Positions 53,779 to 63,789 of a stretch of 64,000 nucleotides of DNA are shown here, piece after piece. The DNA lies in the NCBI GenBank assembly GCA_963847185.1, contig CAWJYV010000008.1, forward strand, positions 352,001 to 416,000, written 5' to 3'. The position numbers and the translations under genes are program-made. Source of the stretch: an uncultured Methanosarcinaceae archaeon. Lineage in GTDB: Archaea > Halobacteriota > Methanosarcinia > Methanosarcinales > Methanosarcinaceae. Numbering within the stretch: position 1 is the stretch's first letter; every line of letters starts with the position of its first letter. The notes below the pieces were generated by a model. The model was given only the letters and a program-made list of their open reading frames with translations. It was not told the origin of the DNA and made no database searches.

Positions 53779-54828
53779 ATGACTATTGGAATAGTATCTT
53801 ACGGTGCTTATGTTCCGAAGTACCGTATAAAAATTGAGGAAATCGCCAAGCTCTGGGGTGACGACGCAGAAGCTCTTAAGAATGGCCTTATGGTGTATGA
53901 GAAATCCGTTCCTGACGTCGATGAAGACGCAGCAACCATAGCTGTGGAGGCAGCAAGATCTGCAATGGTAAGAAGCGGGGTAGACCCCCGAAGAATCGGG
54001 GCAGTATATACTGGTTCGGAGAGTCATCCTTATGCTGTAAAGCCAACAAGTACGATTGTCGCTCAGGCAATTGGAGCAACCCCCGAAATGACTGCAGCGG
54101 ACTTTGAGTTTGCCTGCAAGGCCGGAACAGCTGCAGTTCAGGCCTGCATGGGATTGGTGGGTTCAGGGATGGTCGATCTAGGTCTGGCCATAGGAGCAGA
54201 TGTTTCCCAGGGAGCTCCAAGTGACGCTCTTGAGTATACTGCGGCTGCAGGCGGAGTTGCTTGCCTTATCGGAAGAAAAGAATCCGAGCTTGCCGCAATC
54301 ATTGAGGACACTTATTCTTTTACGACTGATACCCCTGATTTCTGGAGAAGGGAGGGAATGCCCTATCCTGAGCATGGAGGCCGCTTTACTGGAGAGCCAG
54401 GCTACTTCAAACACGTAACCCATGGTGCAAAAGGTCTTCTGAAGAAACTCGGGACAAAGCCTGAAGATTATGATTATGCGGTTTTCCACCAGCCAAACGG
54501 AAAATTCCCAAGCAAAGTTGCAAAAATGCTAGGTTTCACCAAAGCGCAGATTACTCCCGGGCTTGTGGTTCCTAAGATAGGGAATACCTATTCAGGGTCC
54601 TGCCTTATGGGGATTGCTGCAACCCTGGATCAGGCAAAGCCAGGAGACAGGATCTTCGCAACTGCCTTCGGGTCAGGAGCAGGGGCTGATGCTTTCAGCA
54701 TAACAGTTACAGACAGGATCGAGGAAATCCGAAACAAGGCTCCGACGGTTTCCGAATTAATCAAAGATCCTGTATTTATCGACTACGCAAAGTATGCCAG
54801 GCATAAAGGCAAAATCCGTCTGGCCTGA
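53779..54828 (+). CDS. Hydroxymethylglutaryl-CoA synthase
   Basis: [33 protein letters not shown]. Confidence 0.96.
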
Positions 54829-54844
54829 AAACGGGGTGAATATA

Positions 54845-56017
54845 ATGAGAGACGTAGCAATTATCGGAGTAAAGAATACCAAGTTCGGAGAACTCTGGGA
54901 AAAATCCCTGAGGGACATAGTCGTAGAAGCCGGAATAGGTGCAATCGAAGATGCAGGTGTTAGCGGAAAAGAAATAAATGCTCTCTATGTAGGGAACATG
55001 AGTGGAGGCCGCTTTGTTGAGCAGGAACATATAGGAGCTCTTATCGCAGATTATTCCGGGCTTTCCAGAAATCTTCACATTCCGGCTACCAGAGTAGAGG
55101 CTGCCTGTGCATCTGGCGGGCTTGCTCTTCGCCAGGCCATTATGTCTGTAGCATCTGGTTATACTGACATCGTGGTTGCGGCCGGGGCAGAGAAGATGAC
55201 CGATGTCGGGTCTGAAGAAGCATCTGCAGCTCTTGCGGCAGCAGCCGACAGGGAATGGGAAGGCATGGCAGGGGCAACTTTCCCTGGCCTTTATGCAATG
55301 ATTGCGAAATTGCATATGCACAAATATGGAACCACAAGCGAACAGCTTGCAGAAGTTGCCGTAAAAAACCATAAAAACGGTTCTTTCAACCCTATAGCTC
55401 AATATAAAAACACAATTACTGTGGAAGATGTCTTGAAATCCATAATGGTAGCAGATCCTCTGCATATTTTCGACTGCTCTCCAATAACGGATGGAGCTTC
55501 AGCCCTTGTGCTTGCTCCTGCTGATATCGCCCACAAATATACCGATACCCCCATTTATATCAAGGCAACAGCCCAGGCAAGTGATACGATTGCGCTTCAT
55601 GATAGAAGGGATATAACGACTCTGGATGCAACTGTAATGGCTGCAAAGCGAGCCTATGATATGGCAAAGTTGAAGCCTGAAAATATTGACCTTGTGGAAG
55701 TTCACGACTGCTTTACTATTGCGGAAATATGTGCTATTGAAGATCTCGGCTTTGCAGAAAAAGGTAAAGGCGGAATTGTCACCGCAAACGGAGAAACTTC
55801 AATAGGAGGAAGAATTCCTGTCAACACATCTGGCGGCCTTAAAGCCTGCGGACATCCTGTAGGAGCAACGGGCATAAAGCAAGCAGTAGAAGTTGTGACC
55901 CAGCTGCGCGGAGAGGCAGGCAAACGCCAGGTAGCAGGTGCAAAGTATGGAATGACCCACAATGTAGGAGGGTCAGGAGCAACAGCAGTAGTACACATCT
56001 TCTCGAGGGAGAGGTGA
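54845..56017 (+). CDS. Acetoacetyl-CoA thiolase
   Basis: [20 protein letters not shown]. Confidence 0.94.
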
Positions 56018-56022
56018 TATAG

Positions 56023-56421
56023 ATGTCTTCCGTTCCAAGATTCTGGAGAAATCTCGACAGCCGGTATAATCTTGTAGGTACCCGCTGCAAAGAATGTGGA
56101 AATTTTTTCTATCCACCACGTAATTTCTGCGTAAACTGCAGGCGTACAGGTCAGATTGAGACCTACAAGTTTAAAGGTACAGGCGAAATAGTAAGCTACA
56201 CATTAATTCATACAGCTGCAGAGGGTTTTGAAAACCAGGCTCCCTATACACTTGCAATAATTCAGCTTGATGAGGGTCCCCGTCTTACTTCTCAGGTAGT
56301 TGGTGACCCTGAAAAGATGCATATCGGAATGAGGGTAAGATCCATTTTCCGTAAGCTCGGGGAAGATGGTGAACGCGGTATGATTTACTACGGTACCAAA
56401 TTCACCCCTGCAGACGCATAA
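56023..56421 (+). CDS. DUF35 Zn-ribbon/OB-fold scaffold protein
   Basis: CKECG..PPR..CVNC, OB fold; follows HMGCS and thiolase. Confidence 0.93.
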   Translation: MSSVPRFWRNLDSRYNLVGTRCKECGNFFYPPRNFCVNCRRTGQIETYKFKGTGEIVSYTLIHTAAEGFENQAPYTLAIIQLDEGPRLTSQVVGDPEKMHIGMRVRSIFRKLGEDGERGMIYYGTKFTPADA

Positions 56422-56530: not shown

Positions 56531-56794
56531 TTCTTCACCAATCTTCAAAAATAAGTACGGAAAGCGGGAATGCAAGTAAATATTGCACCCGTGTTTCCTT
56601 TCTTCTATATTTTCTCATTTTTGATTATCGTAATTTTTGGGAAATTTCTCCTAACTGCCAATTTCCTAGCTGTCGATTTTTTGTTCCTGATTTTGGACTA
56701 AAGTTTTAAGTGCATTTGCTGTATTATTCAAGTTCAGAACTATTTTGAAGACTTTCCGGAATTTTTCCGGGTAGAATTGGAGATGTTTGTAAAT

Positions 56795-57328
56795 ATGATT
56801 GAAATAGAAGTCAAGGTCAGAGCTGATCATTCAAAAGTTCGCTCCGTCCTTAAGAATATAGGGGCAACGAAAGTTGGGGTTGAAAATCAGTCAGATTCTT
56901 ATTTTGCAGCCCCACACCGAGATTTTGCAAAAACCGACGAAGCTCTCAGAATTCGTTCTCTGGAAGGTCAGGCTGTCCTGACTTATAAAGGTCCTAAGAT
57001 TGATAAAGTCTCTAAAACCAGGGAAGAACTTGAAACTCCTGTAGATGAAGCCGCTACCACAAAAATACTCCATGCTCTTGGCTTCTCGGATGCGGGAATA
57101 GTTCGAAAAAAAAGGGAAGTATTCAGCGCAGGAGAGATAACTGTCTGCCTTGATGCAGTTGAAGGTCTCGGAGAATTTCTTGAAGTCGAAATTGTTGCTG
57201 AAAACGAAAAAGAACTCGATACTACAAGGGAAAAGCTGTTTGAATTCTTAAAACAATTTGGCGCCGGAGAAAAGGACTCTATCAGAACTTCTTACCTTGA
57301 AATGGTACTAGAGAAAAAAAGTCATTAA
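56795..57328 (+). CDS. cyaB: CYTH-family protein (class IV adenylate cyclase-like)
   Basis: EIEVK, ALRIR, LTYKGP, LGEFLEVE, SYLE. Confidence 0.9.
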   Translation: MIEIEVKVRADHSKVRSVLKNIGATKVGVENQSDSYFAAPHRDFAKTDEALRIRSLEGQAVLTYKGPKIDKVSKTREELETPVDEAATTKILHALGFSDAGIVRKKREVFSAGEITVCLDAVEGLGEFLEVEIVAENEKELDTTREKLFEFLKQFGAGEKDSIRTSYLEMVLEKKSH

Positions 57329-57446
57329 TCTACCCTATATTTGGAATTTGCTTCTTTAATCAATATTTTGAGTGGTAATATAAAAAGAAGATCCTGATAA
57401 CTTATGTTTAATTATTTACTCTTTCAAGAAGTAATGTATTTCTAAA

Positions 57447-59422
57447 TTAGGGTATATACAAATGAAAAAAATAAACTCTTCCTAAAGAATCTCCAGCAAC
57501 AATAATATTTTCGTCCTTTAAAATATCAATAGCTGTAAACGGGACATCTCCTGTAAAACAAGAGACTTCAGTACTGATTTCTAAATCCCAAACTTTTAGG
57601 GTTTTATCCGTCGAACCTGAAACAACGTACCTTGGATTAGAGGTGACTGCGACTAAACCGGCAGAATCTGTGTGTCCTTTAAGTGACTTTTTAGCTACTT
57701 TTTTTTCCATGTCCAGAACTTTAATTGTTCTATCGTATGAAGTCGAAACTGCATATTTTCCATCAGGTGTAATCACAATTTTTACTGGTAAAGAGTTATG
57801 TCCTTCCAATGTCACAATTTCGTCTCCTCTTCCCAAACTCCAAATCTTGTGGGTACCATCTCCTGAAGCTGAAACAGCATACTTACCATCTGAAGTTATC
57901 GCTACTGAACCTATGGATCCTGAATGACCCACAAGATTTACTATCTCTATTCCTTTCTCTAAATCCCACACTTTAAGAATTTCATCATGTGAACATGATA
58001 CGACATACTTTGTATTGGGTATGATAGAAATAGTGGACACATAGTCTTTGTGCCCTTTCAATGTTGTTTTTTCTCTCCCTTTTTCCAAATCCCAAACTTT
58101 AAGTGTTTTATCGTCTGAACCTGAAATAGCATACTTTCCATCTGAGGTAATTGCTACTGAAGTCACTCCATCCTTATGCCCTCTTAAAGTCATTTGTTCG
58201 TTTTCTTTTTCCAAGTCCCAAACCCTTAAGGTTTTATCACTTGAACCTGAAACAACATAATTCCCATTAGGGGTTATCGCAAAATCAGTTACTGATTCAA
58301 AATGCCCTTTTAAAGTTGTTTTCTCTTCCCTTTTTCTCAAGTCCCAAACCTTTAGGGTTCCATCGTATGAACCTGAAACAGCATATTTTCCGTCAGGAGT
58401 GATCACTATTTTATTTACTGGTTTTGAATGTCCTTTAGATATTGCTTTGTCATCTCGTTTTCTCAAATCCCAAACTTTTAGAGTTTTATCACTTGAACCT
58501 GAAACAGCATATCTTCCATTAGGAGTAATCGCGATTTTATTTACTGAGTCTGAGTGTCCTATCAAAGTCGAAATTTCTTCCCTTTTTCCCAAGTCCCAAA
58601 CCTTTAGGGTTCCATCGTATGACCCTGAAACGACATGCTTTCCATCAGGTGTGATTATAATTTCAGTTACTGGCTCTGAATGCCCTTTTAAAGTTGCTTT
58701 TTCTTCTCCGGTCTCTAAGTCCCAAACCTTTAGGGTTCCATCAGATGAACCCGAAACAACAAGTTTCCCATCAGAAGGTATCGCAAAATCAGTTACTGGC
58801 TCTGAATGCCCTTTTAAAGTTGTTTTTTCTTCTCCTGTTTCCAAGTCCCAAACCTTTAGGGTTCCATCGTGTGAACCTGAAACAACATGTCTTCCATTAG
58901 AAGTGATTGCAATTGAAAATACCTTCTCGTGCCCTCTCAAAGTTGCTATTTCTTCCCCTTTTTCCAAATCCCAGACTTTAATGATATTATCTCCTGGAAT
59001 TTCATGTAGTGAATTCTCTAAATGGTCAAAAGCGGAAGAAGAAGTAGAAATTACGTATTTTCCATTGGGAGTTATTACAACTTTATTTATCGGCCCTTCA
59101 TGTCCTACTAATGTTGTTTTCTCTCTTCCTGTTCCCAAATCCCAAATTTTAATAGTTTTATCAAGTGAGCCCGAAACGACATATTTTCCGTCTGGAGTGA
59201 TAGCAACTGTTTGAACCCAATGTGTGTGTCCTTTAAGAGTCGTTTTTTCTTCTATTTTTTCCAAATCCCAAATCTTGATATTCTTATCTCCAAACAAGCA
59301 CATTATGTGGTAAGAACAAGAAGCGGCATATTTTCCGTCCAATGATACCGCAATTGCAGTTACAGGAGTGGAATGTCCCTGCAACGTCCCTTTTTCTACC
59401 CATTCATTCAAATCCCAAATTT
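57447..59422 (-). pseudogene. C-terminal WD40 beta-propeller part of the IS-interrupted TIR-NB-ARC-WD40 gene
   Basis: 14 GH..WD-type repeats plus a degenerate terminal blade; in frame with 60163-62793 once the IS and one TSD copy are removed. Confidence 0.9.
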
Positions 59423-60162
59423 GGCATTGGTATCTAAATACTGATATATATTATGAGAACTTATACCTCTTGATGAACTGTCCAAGATGTAAGAGTCTCG
59501 ATCATAATAAGAATGGTAAAGTTAATGGCCGTCAACGCTACAAATGCTCTGATTGTGGGTATAATTATTCAGTAGAGCTAAAATCAACTGCTAGCTCCCC
59601 TTCTGTTAAGAGACAGGCTTTACAACTCTATCTTGAAGGATTAGGATTTCGGTCAATAGGGCGTTTTTTGGGAGTAAGTCATGTTTCTATCCAAAAATGG
59701 ATAAAGAAATTTGGTCAGGAGTTAGAAGAACTAAAAAGCGAAAATGAGATCTCTATTGTTGAAATGGATGAGATGCACACTTACATCGGTAACAAAAAAA
59801 ATATTGCTGGATCTGGATTGCTGTTGATAGAGTTGGGAAAAAGTTCATCAACTGCTCTTTTGGCAGCAGAGGGACAGAAACTGGACAAAATCTCTGGGAA
59901 AAGTTAAAGGAAAAAGAGATTGAAAAAGTGATGACTGATCACTGGAGGGCATATGCAGAGTTCGTTCCAGATAAAATTCATACTCAATCAAAAGCAGAAA
60001 CGTATACTGTTGAAGGATATAACAGCATATTTAGACACTTTCTGGCAAGATTGAGAAGAAAGACAAAATGTTATACTAAGAGTCTTGAAATGCTAAAGTA
60101 TTCAGTTCTTCTCTTAATGAAATACAGAAATAATGAGTTAACTATATTTAGTTAACAATGCC
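59423..60162 (+). mobile_element. IS1-family insertion sequence, apparently intact (740 bp)
   Basis: IRs GGCATTGgtatcTAAATA / GGCATTGttaacTAAATA; 8-bp TSD CCAAATTT (59415-59422, 60163-60170); InsA CPRC..CSDC from 59473, A8 -1 slip near 59794, InsB to 60155. Confidence 0.95.
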
Positions 60163-62793
60163 CCAAATTTTAATAGTTTTGTCCGTTGAAGCAGAAATTG
60201 CATATTTTCCATTGGATGTGATAACAACATCGTTTATCGGATATGTGTGTGCTTCAAAAGTTCTTTTCAGCGAGCCACCGGGTGGTTTTAGGCAAGGTTG
60301 AAGAGGTATTATTTTGACACCGTTTTCTTTCCATTCAGTAGCTTGATCCAACAGTAGTCGTATCCCTTCATTTTGATTGAAAACGTGCAGTCGTCCAATA
60401 AGTTGTCCAGAAAATTGAGCTTCACCTTTAACTATAACGTCAAAAGAAAGCTGGATTGCTCCTTTCACAAGTTCAATTTCTGGTTCATTAGAGATAGATT
60501 CGTAATCATGAAGTAGGGAATTTAAATCAGGTATTCCTTTTCCGTCTTTTTCCTGCATTAAACGAACACATTTGATCTTTTTGCACATCCATTCAAAATT
60601 CAAAAGAAGCTTGCGAAGCTCTTCTCTTTTTCCTGCTTCTTTCATATGATATGCAAGATGTCTGTAAAAATAGCCATCTTCAGGACCTGAACTCCATTTA
60701 TTGTCACATTCCTTCCCATATGCTTCCAGTATATTGTTATGGAGGTTGGGAAAATCGCCTGCTTTTGCTCTCAGGTAGTCGAACTGAAGGTCATGTAAAG
60801 ATATAAGACGATTAGGGGCTTCACCATCAAGCCGCAAAAGAGATCTGTCTTTTAATTTAGTAAGCAGCTTTTCAACGTTACGTCTTTTCAGATTTCCAGT
60901 ATGTCCCCATAGAGTTGTAATCGTAGCTTCAGGCACTAATTCATCTTCAGGGAAGATCACTAATTCCTGATAACGCAGTACAGCATTAGGGTCTTCGTGT
61001 GAGAGAAAATCAACACTAACTTTCAATGCTCTTCCTACATTGGGATCTGGATAATTTGGTAAATGAGCTTCAATGAATTCAAGATCAGCTTCTTGTAAAG
61101 CTTCAAGGATATACATCCATGATATTCCACTTTTGGCCATAGCACCACATATGGATAGAGCAAGTGGTAGGTATCCGCATTCTCTGGCAATCTCTGCAGC
61201 GTGAGATGGCAATGAATTAACTTCCTCTTCGCACCAGTTTGCCAGAAGTTTCAAAGCGTCAGGTTCGCTTAGTACTTCGATTTTATGTTCTTGAGCTCCA
61301 AGAGAAGTGACCACATCATTATTTCGTGTGGTAATAAGTAGCCTGCAGCGTGAACCTAAAGCATTGACGAAAGGTGTAGCTTGTGGAACTTTCCATATGT
61401 CATCAAGTACAATGAGGCATATCTTTTCAGAAAGTACATTTGAAAGACTTGCTTCAGCTTCTCTTTTGCTTCTATAATTTGCAGGGTCATCTCCAAATTT
61501 TGTCCCAATCAATCTCATGTACTCAATAAGATCAGAATCCGATGTATCCAATCCAACAGTTACCCAGAATATCCCATCACAAAAAGCTCTACGAGTTTCC
61601 ACAGCGCGGGCAAAAGCTGTTGATAGTACAGATTTTCCCATTCCCCCCATACCTTGAAGGGCGGTAATCTTCTTTGAGGATGTGATTACCACAGGTTTAA
61701 CAGTGTCAGCTAATATTATTTCTTTAATTATATTGAGGTCATCTTTTCTAGGTAAGTAGTTAGGGGGTAGTGAGGGAACTCCAATTAAAGGACCAAGTGG
61801 AGGGATAGGCTCTTTTATAAGCCGGATCAGTTCTTCGAGCGCTTCGTCATAAGGACGCGTTTCTCGGAAATCCGGGCAATGTAGTTTCGACATTTCAGGG
61901 AGAAGTAATTTATAATCCCCCATACGCAAAATTGGAATTACACCTTTACTAAAAAGAAGGGCGTGTTCCCATTCATACCTAACAGAATCGGATTCTAATG
62001 CTTTAGGTCCGATAACGGCAATTAACAGGTCTGAGTCCTCAATTGCATCTCGTATTTCCTGTAGAAAAGTTCTGCCGCGATTTTTCATAGCGGCTCTGTC
62101 CCACCAGATCTTAAAACTTTTCTCTTTAAGATCTTTATAGAGTTTTTCTACAAATGGTTCGTCATCTTCTCGGGCATATGAAATAAATAAGGATGGTAGT
62201 TTTTCAACTGGACTTTCTTTTTCTTCAATTCCTATGGAGCTATCGCTTATAAGCTTTTTAATATCGTTAAATCCGTTTGCTACTTCTTTTTTTATATCGA
62301 AGTGCCGACGGTTGGCGAGGGCATTAGAAGCACCTGAAGATCCCTCATTTGCTGCTCTGTTTAGAGAAACTTGAATTCCTTCGTCCAGTACCTCAAATAC
62401 CTTAAATAAAAAAGAATTTCTTTCCTCGGTTTCCAGATCTCTTCTTCCATTCTCTATCCTTATTGTCTTGGGAAACAATGATACAAAATTTTTCTTGATA
62501 TCGTCAAGGTTTTTATTCATACCACTTTGAAACACATACAATTGCTTGATTATTGATTCGATATCCTCAGATTCGTATAAAATCTCACAAATAGCCTTTA
62601 TATCCTCTTGATATATCAGAGGAAACTCTTCTAATTCTGTTTTCGCTATAATTATTTTTTCAAAATCAGCTTCTCTAATTGCTGTTTTCTCAATCGGCTC
62701 CCTTTCAAAAATATAGCTTTTTACTTTATTATATAGGTAGACCCCTACGCTGCTTATCCCTCCACTTATTAAATCTTCAGCAGTAGGTTTCAT
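60163..62793 (-). pseudogene. N-terminal part of NLR-like STAND protein: helical N-region + TIR + NB-ARC + APAF-1-like helical domain + first WD40
   Basis: TIR LFISYARED..SVRYEWEHA; Walker A GMGGMGKS; Walker B LIVLDDIW; LLITTR; CGYLPLAL; LHDL. Confidence 0.92.
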
Positions 62794-63789
62794 GGTGTAC
62801 CCTTGGAATTTTAGTCTCATGTTTCGAGGAATTATTTCCCAATTAAACCTTTCGTTTTTGTTTATTTGGGATCTTTTTTAAGTTTTTACAAGTAAAAAAG
62901 TTCCTTCCCATTTTATTAGGTAGTTATGTTGATATTTGGTAAAACAAAACAATGATTATCTACAAGTTCTTTTTCTGATCCTTCCCTCGTAATCAGCCTT
63001 CTTACGCTGTTTTTGTCACGCTCGCTTGCGAGCGGCTTTTCTTATGAAATATAAAAAGGATATATTACTCCAAGAATACATTCTTTAAAAGAAGGAGCAA
63101 TTACTCAGAACCTGATTCCATTTTATTTCTATTTTCCCCATATCATTAAGGGTTATTGAGTCTCATTTAATAAATTAAGTGTAACTTCAGATATTTCTAA
63201 AAAAAAATATATTGTAATAGGATTATTTGCTATTCAAAGGGATAAAAAATTTTAATTTTTGGTTTCAAATATCTTTAATCCTTATTTTGGATTTTTTATT
63301 TAGTATACTAAATAAAAAAGCTGGATGCCGTAATTGAAAATAATTATAATTTGTCAATATATTAAGGTTTTATTCAACTTTATTACTCCTTTTAACGATT
63401 AATAAAATTTATTTTTCCGCATATCTGTCTATTATTATCTATTTTGATATAAGAGATTGCTTTATTAGCTTATTGTCAAAATAAACAATTTAAATCATTT
63501 ATTTTATACTCTCTTTTTAAAGAAACCTATTATTGCATCTTTATGAACATTTATCTGCATTTTTCCTATTTCGATTATCAACACACTATTAATATTTATT
63601 TTAGCTTTCAGTAGCTATATATCTTTAACTTAATATGATATTATCTAATGAATGTTCTTTCAATAGTAAAAAAGAATATTCATAGTAAAACTAGAACTTA
63701 AATAATCAATCTAACTAAGGGAATCAAATTGAAAGTACACCAGTTTAAGAATTGTGTTAAATCTGGAGAATAGTGGGGAATCAAGACAA

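Follow-up and report, generated by a model that had tools for sequence, protein, structure and literature searches.

Proteins in which a TIR domain is fused to an AP-ATPase have already been published from prokaryotes (PMC7159879), and NLR-like (nucleotide-binding leucine-rich repeat-like) architectures have been published as abundant in Methanosarcina (bioRxiv 10.1101/2020.01.06.895854). Here we describe a gene of this kind in a 64,000-nucleotide stretch of DNA (the window; positions 352,001 to 416,000 of contig CAWJYV010000008.1, assembly GCA_963847185.1) from an uncultured Methanosarcinaceae archaeon. The gene shares its sequence family and domain order with the prokaryotic TIR-NB-ARC(AP-ATPase)-WD40 proteins, i.e., NLR-like members of the signal transduction ATPases with numerous domains (STAND), and it differs from them in that most are without its N-terminal helical domain and in that the copy in the window is cut by an insertion sequence (IS). 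The kind of protein is therefore already known, since both its architecture and its presence in Methanosarcina are on record; databases already annotate orthologs in M. mazei and M. barkeri as NB-ARC or TIR domain-containing proteins, and the locus is modest as a discovery in itself. In the literature that we searched, mostly by abstract, we found no experimental work on an archaeal NLR-like receptor, with only comparative-genomic mentions of such proteins.

Two open reading frames are halves of one gene

Two minus-strand open reading frames (ORFs) lie on either side of the plus-strand ORFs of the IS in our ORF listing (Table 1), and our analysis demonstrated that they are the halves of one gene. 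Deleting positions 59423-60170 in silico (748 bp) produces a frame of 4626 nt with 0 internal stops and a 1541-aa product from the first ATG; deleting 749 bp instead, as a control for the frame, gives 58 stops. We consider the two ORFs to be one gene because the 748-bp deletion restores the frame, and because the rejoined frame aligns end to end with intact orthologs. Orthologs start at the Met corresponding to M10, which is the likely true start and gives a product of 1532 aa. An earlier note on this DNA had proposed one receptor gene of about 1,530 aa hidden as two ORFs, rejoined in frame from ...KIW to DL... by removing the IS1 and one copy of the target-site duplication, and all of this is borne out by the excision and by the colinear orthologs, with the junction falling within the first WD40 blade. 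The same note had taken the gene for a working receptor in this methanogen, and that part has to be given up. The gene is a pseudogene in this strain, split and recently inactivated by an IS1-family element, and the strain can encode only two fragments: one of 890 aa without the sensor, whose frame continues into the IS as far as a stop at 60148, and a WD40 fragment that has no start.

Both ORFs are open, and the gene is also in pieces in two related genomes (G005 and G041), so that they could be read as a functional split system, made up of a TIR-NB-ARC protein and a separate WD40 protein. We give this reading practically no credence, since it was the arrival of an IS, with its target duplication, that divided the gene, G005 and G041 are broken at different places, the intact orthologs are single chains, and the sole start of the downstream ORF is a TTG inside a blade.

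The element that splits the gene is a member of the IS1 family. Its first frame matches the NCBIfam IS1 model NF033558 (127.1 bits, cut-off 100), an A8 slip site at 59794-59801 gives, by a -1 shift, a DDE frame ending at 60155, and this second frame matches Pfam DDE_Tnp_IS1 (36.9 bits, cut-off 24.1). The terminal inverted repeats, 18 nt each (59423-59440 and 60145-60162), are 89% complementary. The element thus has in common with the described family an InsA frame, a DDE frame reached by slippage at an A-run, short inverted repeats, an 8-bp duplication and its length, and it differs in belonging to an archaeal lineage of the family. We conclude that it has been recently active because 11 full-length copies, 90-100% identical, are present in the genome together with fragments, and because 8-bp A/T-rich target duplications flank several of the other copies; it looks currently active as well. 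The insertion point, at the codons AAA-ATT-TGG that encode the "K-I-W" motif of the first WD40 blade, is of the type of target site used by this IS. The locus is a further example of a costly gene of immune type being disabled by an active IS1-type element.

Table 1. Features of the split receptor gene, the inserted element and their flanks (window positions; residues are those of the rejoined protein)
Feature	Position	Strand	Details
5′ half ORF	60148..62820	-	890 aa
3′ half ORF	57447..59411	-	654 aa
5′ part of split gene	60171..62820	-	residues 1-883 plus one base; N-domain, TIR, NB-ARC, winged-helix domain (WHD), helical domain 2 (HD2), most of WD40 blade 1
3′ part of split gene	57447..59422	-	end of blade 1, WD40 blades 2-16, stop codon
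N-terminal helical domain	62221..62793	-	residues 10-200, from likely start M10
TIR_2 domain	61825..62187	-	residues 212-332, Pfam E 3.9e-22
Candidate catalytic Glu E283	61972-61974 (codon)	-	from alignment and conservation
NB-ARC domain	61012..61677	-	residues 382-603, Pfam E 2.6e-28
Walker A GMGGMGKS	61630-61653	-	residue 390
APAF-1-like WHD and HD2	60559..60972	-	residues 617-683 and 691-754 (Pfam)
IS1-family insertion sequence	59423..60162	+	740 bp
insA-like frame of the IS	59473-59907	+	Zn-ribbon/HTH InsA
Target-site duplication, copy 1	59415..59422		CCAAATTT, 8 bp
Target-site duplication, copy 2	60163..60170		CCAAATTT, 8 bp
cyaB-like CYTH gene	56777..57328	+	conserved flank, converges on receptor gene
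Upstream intergenic region	62821..63753		24.8% GC, presumed promoter region

A TIR domain, an Apaf-1-type switch and a WD40 sensor in one chain

With the IS removed in silico, a single chain carries the NLR-like layout of effector, nucleotide-binding oligomerization domain and repeat sensor, in the order helical N-domain, TIR, NB-ARC, WHD, HD2 and a WD40 region of 16 blades. The NB-ARC domain scores 99.4 bits in Pfam (cut-off 23.5), and in addition to Walker A we identified Walker B (LIVLDD, residue 469), sensor-1 (TTRN, residue 497), GYLPLAL (GLPL-like, GxP, residue 549) and an MHD-type motif in the winged helix (LHD, residue 675), which aligns to the LHD of Apaf-1. The HD2 is matched by APAF1_C (48.5 bits, cut-off 22.8), with helices that extend to about residue 830 in the predicted model, and APAF-1-like_WHD scores 26.4 bits, just below its cut-off of 27. 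Walker A, Walker B, TTR, GxP, an MHD-type WHD and HD2 together place the protein in the NB-ARC/AP-ATPase clade, and its Pfam NACHT score of 18.5 bits, below the cut-off of 26.7, keeps it out of the NACHT clade. For the sensor, Pfam identifies WD40, with scores over the cut-off, at residues 850-886 and in 14 stretches of the 3′ ORF. The 16 blades follow from 15 repeat ends of the form K-x-W-D-L and one terminal blade; 12 of them are regular 42-aa units with a mutual identity of 53% on average and 81% at most. Our genome scan found no other NB-ARC gene in this genome; a 38-aa remnant at G000:C7:830244-830357 (G000 being this genome) is 66% identical to the NB-ARC of the receptor gene.

Of known structures, Apaf-1 is the nearest to this switch. 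The sequence matches Apaf-1 3sfz over the nucleotide-binding domain (NBD), WHD and HD2 with the motifs in register (E 5.5e-34), and an AlphaFold model of the 890-aa part, made with a 40-row alignment (predicted local distance difference test, pLDDT, 78.7), has ADP-bound Apaf-1 1z6t as its best Foldseek match (E 3.5e-21), followed by plant NLRs including the TIR-NLR RPP1, and then by Dark and CED-4; 3sfz and the plant NLR WRR4A are also among the matches. As in Apaf-1, the NBD-WHD-HD2 unit is followed by a double WD40 sensor of about 15-16 blades. It differs in having no CARD (none in the Pfam scan) and in carrying a TIR and a helical N-domain, so that the cytochrome c/caspase logic of Apaf-1 cannot be assumed. 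Plant TIR-NLRs, i.e., RPP1, ROQ1 and WRR4A, likewise place a TIR before the NB-ARC switch, and by analogy with them an oligomerization-activated NADase would be expected; unlike them, the window protein has a WD40 sensor in place of leucine-rich repeats and C-JID, no EDS1 or helper pathway, and an NB-ARC that the fold search places nearer to Apaf-1 than to plant NLRs. The Avs (AVAST) and bNACHT STANDs share with it a single chain of effector, STAND and repeat sensor, and swappable N-terminal effectors, and differ in that its NACHT score is below the cut-off, its sensor is WD40 and not TPR, and no PADLOC model matches its NB-ARC or sensor part as such. The earlier note had suggested a PADLOC run and an AlphaFold model, and the former returned only partial matches at the level of the TIR and a repeat-level match of the WD40 part to HEAT-ARM_XIII. 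The note's reading of the switch and sensor (an NB-ARC with Walker A/B, GLPL-like and MHD-like motifs, a helical domain and about 16 blades) agrees with the Pfam, motif and Apaf-1 evidence.

The TIR_2 domain scores 79.4 bits (cut-off 28) and is likely to be enzymatic, with E283 as the candidate catalytic residue. This candidate was chosen because HMMER alignments pair E283 (in ...RYE...) with the Glu that is conserved in BtTir 7uxr and in a TLR TIR, and because it is conserved in the family: 109 of 111 family sequences retain E283, but only 68 of 111 its neighbor E285 (9 of the 119 listed relatives, which lacked a Walker A motif or had an N-terminus of insufficient length, were left out of this count), and E283 is invariant in the 40-row alignment (40/40). 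The Glu that the earlier note had placed at the catalytic position, within SVRYEWEHA, is thus near-invariant.

On these grounds, we regard it as on balance probable that the intact form would be a single-gene, NLR-like STAND receptor, a ligand-triggered and oligomerizing NADase leading to cell death or dormancy, which the IS has inactivated here. The WD40 propellers would keep the protein off until a trigger is bound, most likely a viral protein; the Apaf-1-type NB-ARC module would then exchange nucleotide and oligomerize; the clustered N-terminal TIR domains would form active NADase sites around E283; and the infected cell would arrest or die through the depletion of NAD+ or the production of an NAD-derived signal. 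The N-terminal helical domain may be a second output or an assembly module, common to other STAND NTPases. We infer these steps, and with them the antiviral or cell-death role, from the analogous and established cases of Apaf-1, plant TIR-NLRs, and the TIR and STAND proteins of bacterial defence (see also PMC7159879).

An unlikely alternative for the output step is that the product of the TIR is a signaling nucleotide, an isomer of cyclic ADP-ribose like those of Thoeris and plant TIR-NLRs, which would be read by a separate effector, with no killing by NAD+ depletion. It draws on TIR-level matches to the ThsB model and the Thoeris type III ThcB4 model, and on the presence elsewhere in the genome of a second, small TIR_2 ORF (G000:C8:1076758-1077108, in a 190-aa open frame). 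However, both matches are far under their cut-offs (36.6 bits vs 220 for ThcB4), which also sets the protein apart from Thoeris ThsB. There is likewise no partner gene beside the receptor gene: no ORF of at least 60 aa occurs in the intergenic region between it and the divergent ORF that starts at 63754, and the syntenic loci in G005 and G041 have no partner gene in common with this one, with the search for ThsA and ThsA-like readers being confined to these neighborhoods and not genome-wide.

Orthologs, module swaps and a variable interval

We compared the rejoined protein with its relatives. The family comprises 221 proteins at E<=1e-3 among 7999 scored candidates; among them, identity is 77-82% for the orthologs of M. 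mazei and M. barkeri and 41-64% for members from bacteria and archaea, and most relatives span about 76-77% of the query, i.e., they are without the N-terminal helical domain. Intact orthologs that have the N-domain and are colinear with the rejoined protein are P0002 (1484 aa), P0004 (1522 aa), P0005 (1480 aa, M. mazei) and P0010 (1520 aa). Identity to the first three of these falls from about 90% in both the TIR and the NBD, through about 80% in the N-domain and 64% in WHD plus HD2, to 47-58% in WD40. Between G000 and G005, the ratio of nonsynonymous to synonymous substitution rates (dN/dS) is 0.07 for the TIR, 0.19 for the NBD, 0.18 for WHD plus HD2, 0.31 for WD40 and 0.41 for the N-domain, and because it is low in every domain, we conclude that the gene was selected for most of the divergence of these two genomes and that the disruptions are recent.

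The gene is rare in both genus and phylum, and has been broken independently in relatives. Any match at all was present in 20 of 58 other genomes of the genus, with few close homologs, and a match at E<=1e-40 in 5 of 401 genomes of the phylum sample. The copy in G005 is at the same locus and 82% identical. In G041, the gene is also syntenic (L012 5322-7592, G041:C44), and residues 196-332, comprising the linker and the TIR, are cleanly gone in frame, so that the N-domain joins the NB-ARC. In G048 (L013 6072-9974, G048:C5), an intact 1300-aa ORF is 65% identical over NB-ARC and HD2, and a trypsin-like peptidase replaces the N-domain and TIR, an exchange of effectors on a single chassis. Fragments of the gene are present in G020 and G023. 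These loci offer natural test material, with an IS null allele, intact orthologs, a TIR-less variant and a protease-bearing variant on the same chassis. A scan of metagenomes for intact syntenic orthologs returned only two distant loci, at 31-32% identity; in a search of sequencing runs with words sampled from 59000-60600, the best run contained 0.31 of the words and RNA runs no more than 0.12, fractions from which neither expression nor habitat can be read. Elsewhere in the genus, one genome carries three clustered NB-ARC-WD40 paralogs within about 20 kb (L006, G040:C1:3628893-3648448) that are 34-37% identical to the receptor gene.

The receptor gene lies between cyaB and metG, the next conserved gene, which is 15.6 kb from cyaB in this genome. 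The interval (window position 57329 to G000:C8:424940, L017) also contains genes for a secreted-looking protein, ArsR, a heavy-metal P-type ATPase, a PKD protein and an HNH endonuclease-domain protein. Across 37 genomes of the genus with both genes close together on one contig (G044, with 43 kb between the two and stops in its metG match, was left out), the genes are separated by 182 bp to 15,615 bp, in 10 cases by less than 1 kb. The receptor gene occupies this interval in G000, G005 and G041, and G023 and G032 show a single WD40-type match beside cyaB, at contig ends. The cyaB-metG interval is thus a variable hotspot, which supports the accessory status of the gene. The earlier note had placed the gene in an AT-rich accessory segment after cyaB, and of this description the word accessory stands, given the variable interval and the few genomes concerned, and AT-rich does not: the gene has 38.1% GC vs 39.9% for the genome, and an AT-rich island is ruled out by its position at the 32nd percentile of 4.6-kb windows of the genome. 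The comparison of orthologs and of the cyaB locus that the note had proposed gave intact orthologs, patchy presence and a fast-evolving WD40 region. Just upstream of cyaB (54794-56421), a 407-aa ORF, which appears thiolase-like from its translation, and a 132-aa ORF are kept by size and order beside cyaB in G005 and G041.

The identity gradient across domains, the N-terminal module swaps in G048 and G041, the patchy distribution and the variable interval are consistent with an immune-like mode of evolution, and we list them in support of the receptor proposed here. Several observations weigh against it. At the level of the enzyme, a gap-shifted HMMER alignment to AbTIR sets the catalytic Glu of that protein opposite a Leu. 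No PADLOC model covers the whole protein, the best being a partial match at the level of the TIR (PDC-S66, 41.9 bits, residues 177-283), and no known defence gene adjoins the receptor gene in the cyaB-metG interval. Copies in close relatives are themselves broken: G005 has lost 1 nt from an A-run in a later blade, the WD40 part of G041 is in pieces, and G047 has several frame breaks, so that the gene could be dispensable or costly, and not protective. Some of the breaks found in draft or metagenome assemblies may be errors in repeats.

The trigger could also be something other than a virus, with the receptor serving cell-cell conflict or programmed death in Methanosarcina aggregates, i.e., recognition of self and non-self or of damage. 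The WD40 repeats are internally similar, as described above, and high internal repeat similarity is also a feature of fungal allorecognition NLRs. In addition, NLR-like and conflict systems have been tied to multicellular or aggregate-forming prokaryotes, with Methanosarcina named among them (bioRxiv 10.1101/2020.01.06.895854; PMC7159879). The locus gives no pointer to a cellular ligand, however, and the same evolutionary signs suit antiviral sensors equally, and we see only a small chance that this is the role of the gene. We retain a virus-triggered NADase receptor as the preferred reading of the intact form.

The N-terminal helical domain

The less expected feature of the protein is an unmodelled domain ahead of the TIR, which corresponds to the N-region of about 200 aa in the earlier note. 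In the Pfam scan of the rejoined protein, residues 10-200 gave no match. Their predicted model is all-helical (pLDDT 76.3, predicted template modelling score 0.68), with the first 22 residues poorly modelled. Foldseek against the PDB returned a best E of 0.7 for this model, and the top Z among the 48,161 chains compared with VIA-align was 5.3, within the noise for helical models. An Atlas search gave weak leads to NNH2 and NNH5 (0.85 and 0.82, respectively), and the NNH Pfam models matched none of 10 N-domain members at E<=5. The HeLo-type Pfam models had no match to the window protein or to the 10 and 20 N-domain members scanned, and the 20 further members had no Pfam match over their N-terminal region at E<=1; over all members scanned, Pfam showed no match that recurred consistently.

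A 10-row profile of the N-domain identified 365 cluster representatives at E<=1e-3, always with the domain at the N-terminus, and the locus thereby points to a domain family that heads many STAND NTPases. We scanned 43 of 150 listed profile matches, mostly the longer ones, against Pfam, and found the N-domain to be followed by NACHT in 28 (with no other Pfam effector domain), by NB-ARC in 3, by nSTAND5 in 3, by nSTAND3 in 1 and by an arrangement of TPR-GreAB-C-PIN type in 2; 2 more showed WD40 rows among the best 25 matches listed, where any NTPase would not be visible, and nothing was found in 4. A stand-alone, EAD-like adaptor was considered but is not supported, as all 19 places in the genus, one of them the NACHT gene of this genome described below, are long STAND frames or one contig-cut fragment, and the short database matches are truncated gene calls and not free N-domains, since they continue into a P-loop or pre-NACHT region.

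Bell and HeLo domains have been described as having a hydrophobic helix at the N-terminus together with an early acidic residue (bioRxiv 10.1101/2020.01.06.895854). The wider N-domain family recalls them in these features, both of which are common in it and weak in the window protein. A hydrophobic N-terminal 17-mer (Kyte-Doolittle, KD, >=1.6) occurs in 72 of 141 N-domain members starting with M vs 1 of 110 sequences of the TIR family set, and D or E at position 2 or 3 in 82 of 141 vs 36 of 110. The N-domain might accordingly be imagined as the true executioner, membrane-targeting like HeLo, Bell and plant coiled-coil (CC) domains, with the TIR serving as an assembly or regulatory module, and it is the sole candidate output domain in most relatives, namely in the 28 of 43 scanned that have NACHT. 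We consider this very unlikely for the window protein, whose own helix is weakly hydrophobic (0.92) and models poorly over its first 22 residues, whose N-domain has no fold match to a known executioner domain in Foldseek or VIA-align, and in which the TIR is the most strongly constrained part, as suits an enzyme. A combined form, in which the N-domain would be a new execution module in the NLR-like proteins of prokaryotes, one that targets membranes and was stacked before the TIR NADase in this Methanosarcina lineage, is decidedly doubtful; if true, one chain would hold both of the outputs, NAD+ cleavage and membrane attack, that are split in plants between TIR-NLRs and CC/RPW8 helper NLRs.

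Matches to the N-domain profile also occur upstream of two of the three clustered paralogs at G040:C1. In addition, the same N-domain is followed by NACHT in an intact 1052-aa open frame of this genome (G000:C10:420572-421846), a paralogous STAND receptor.

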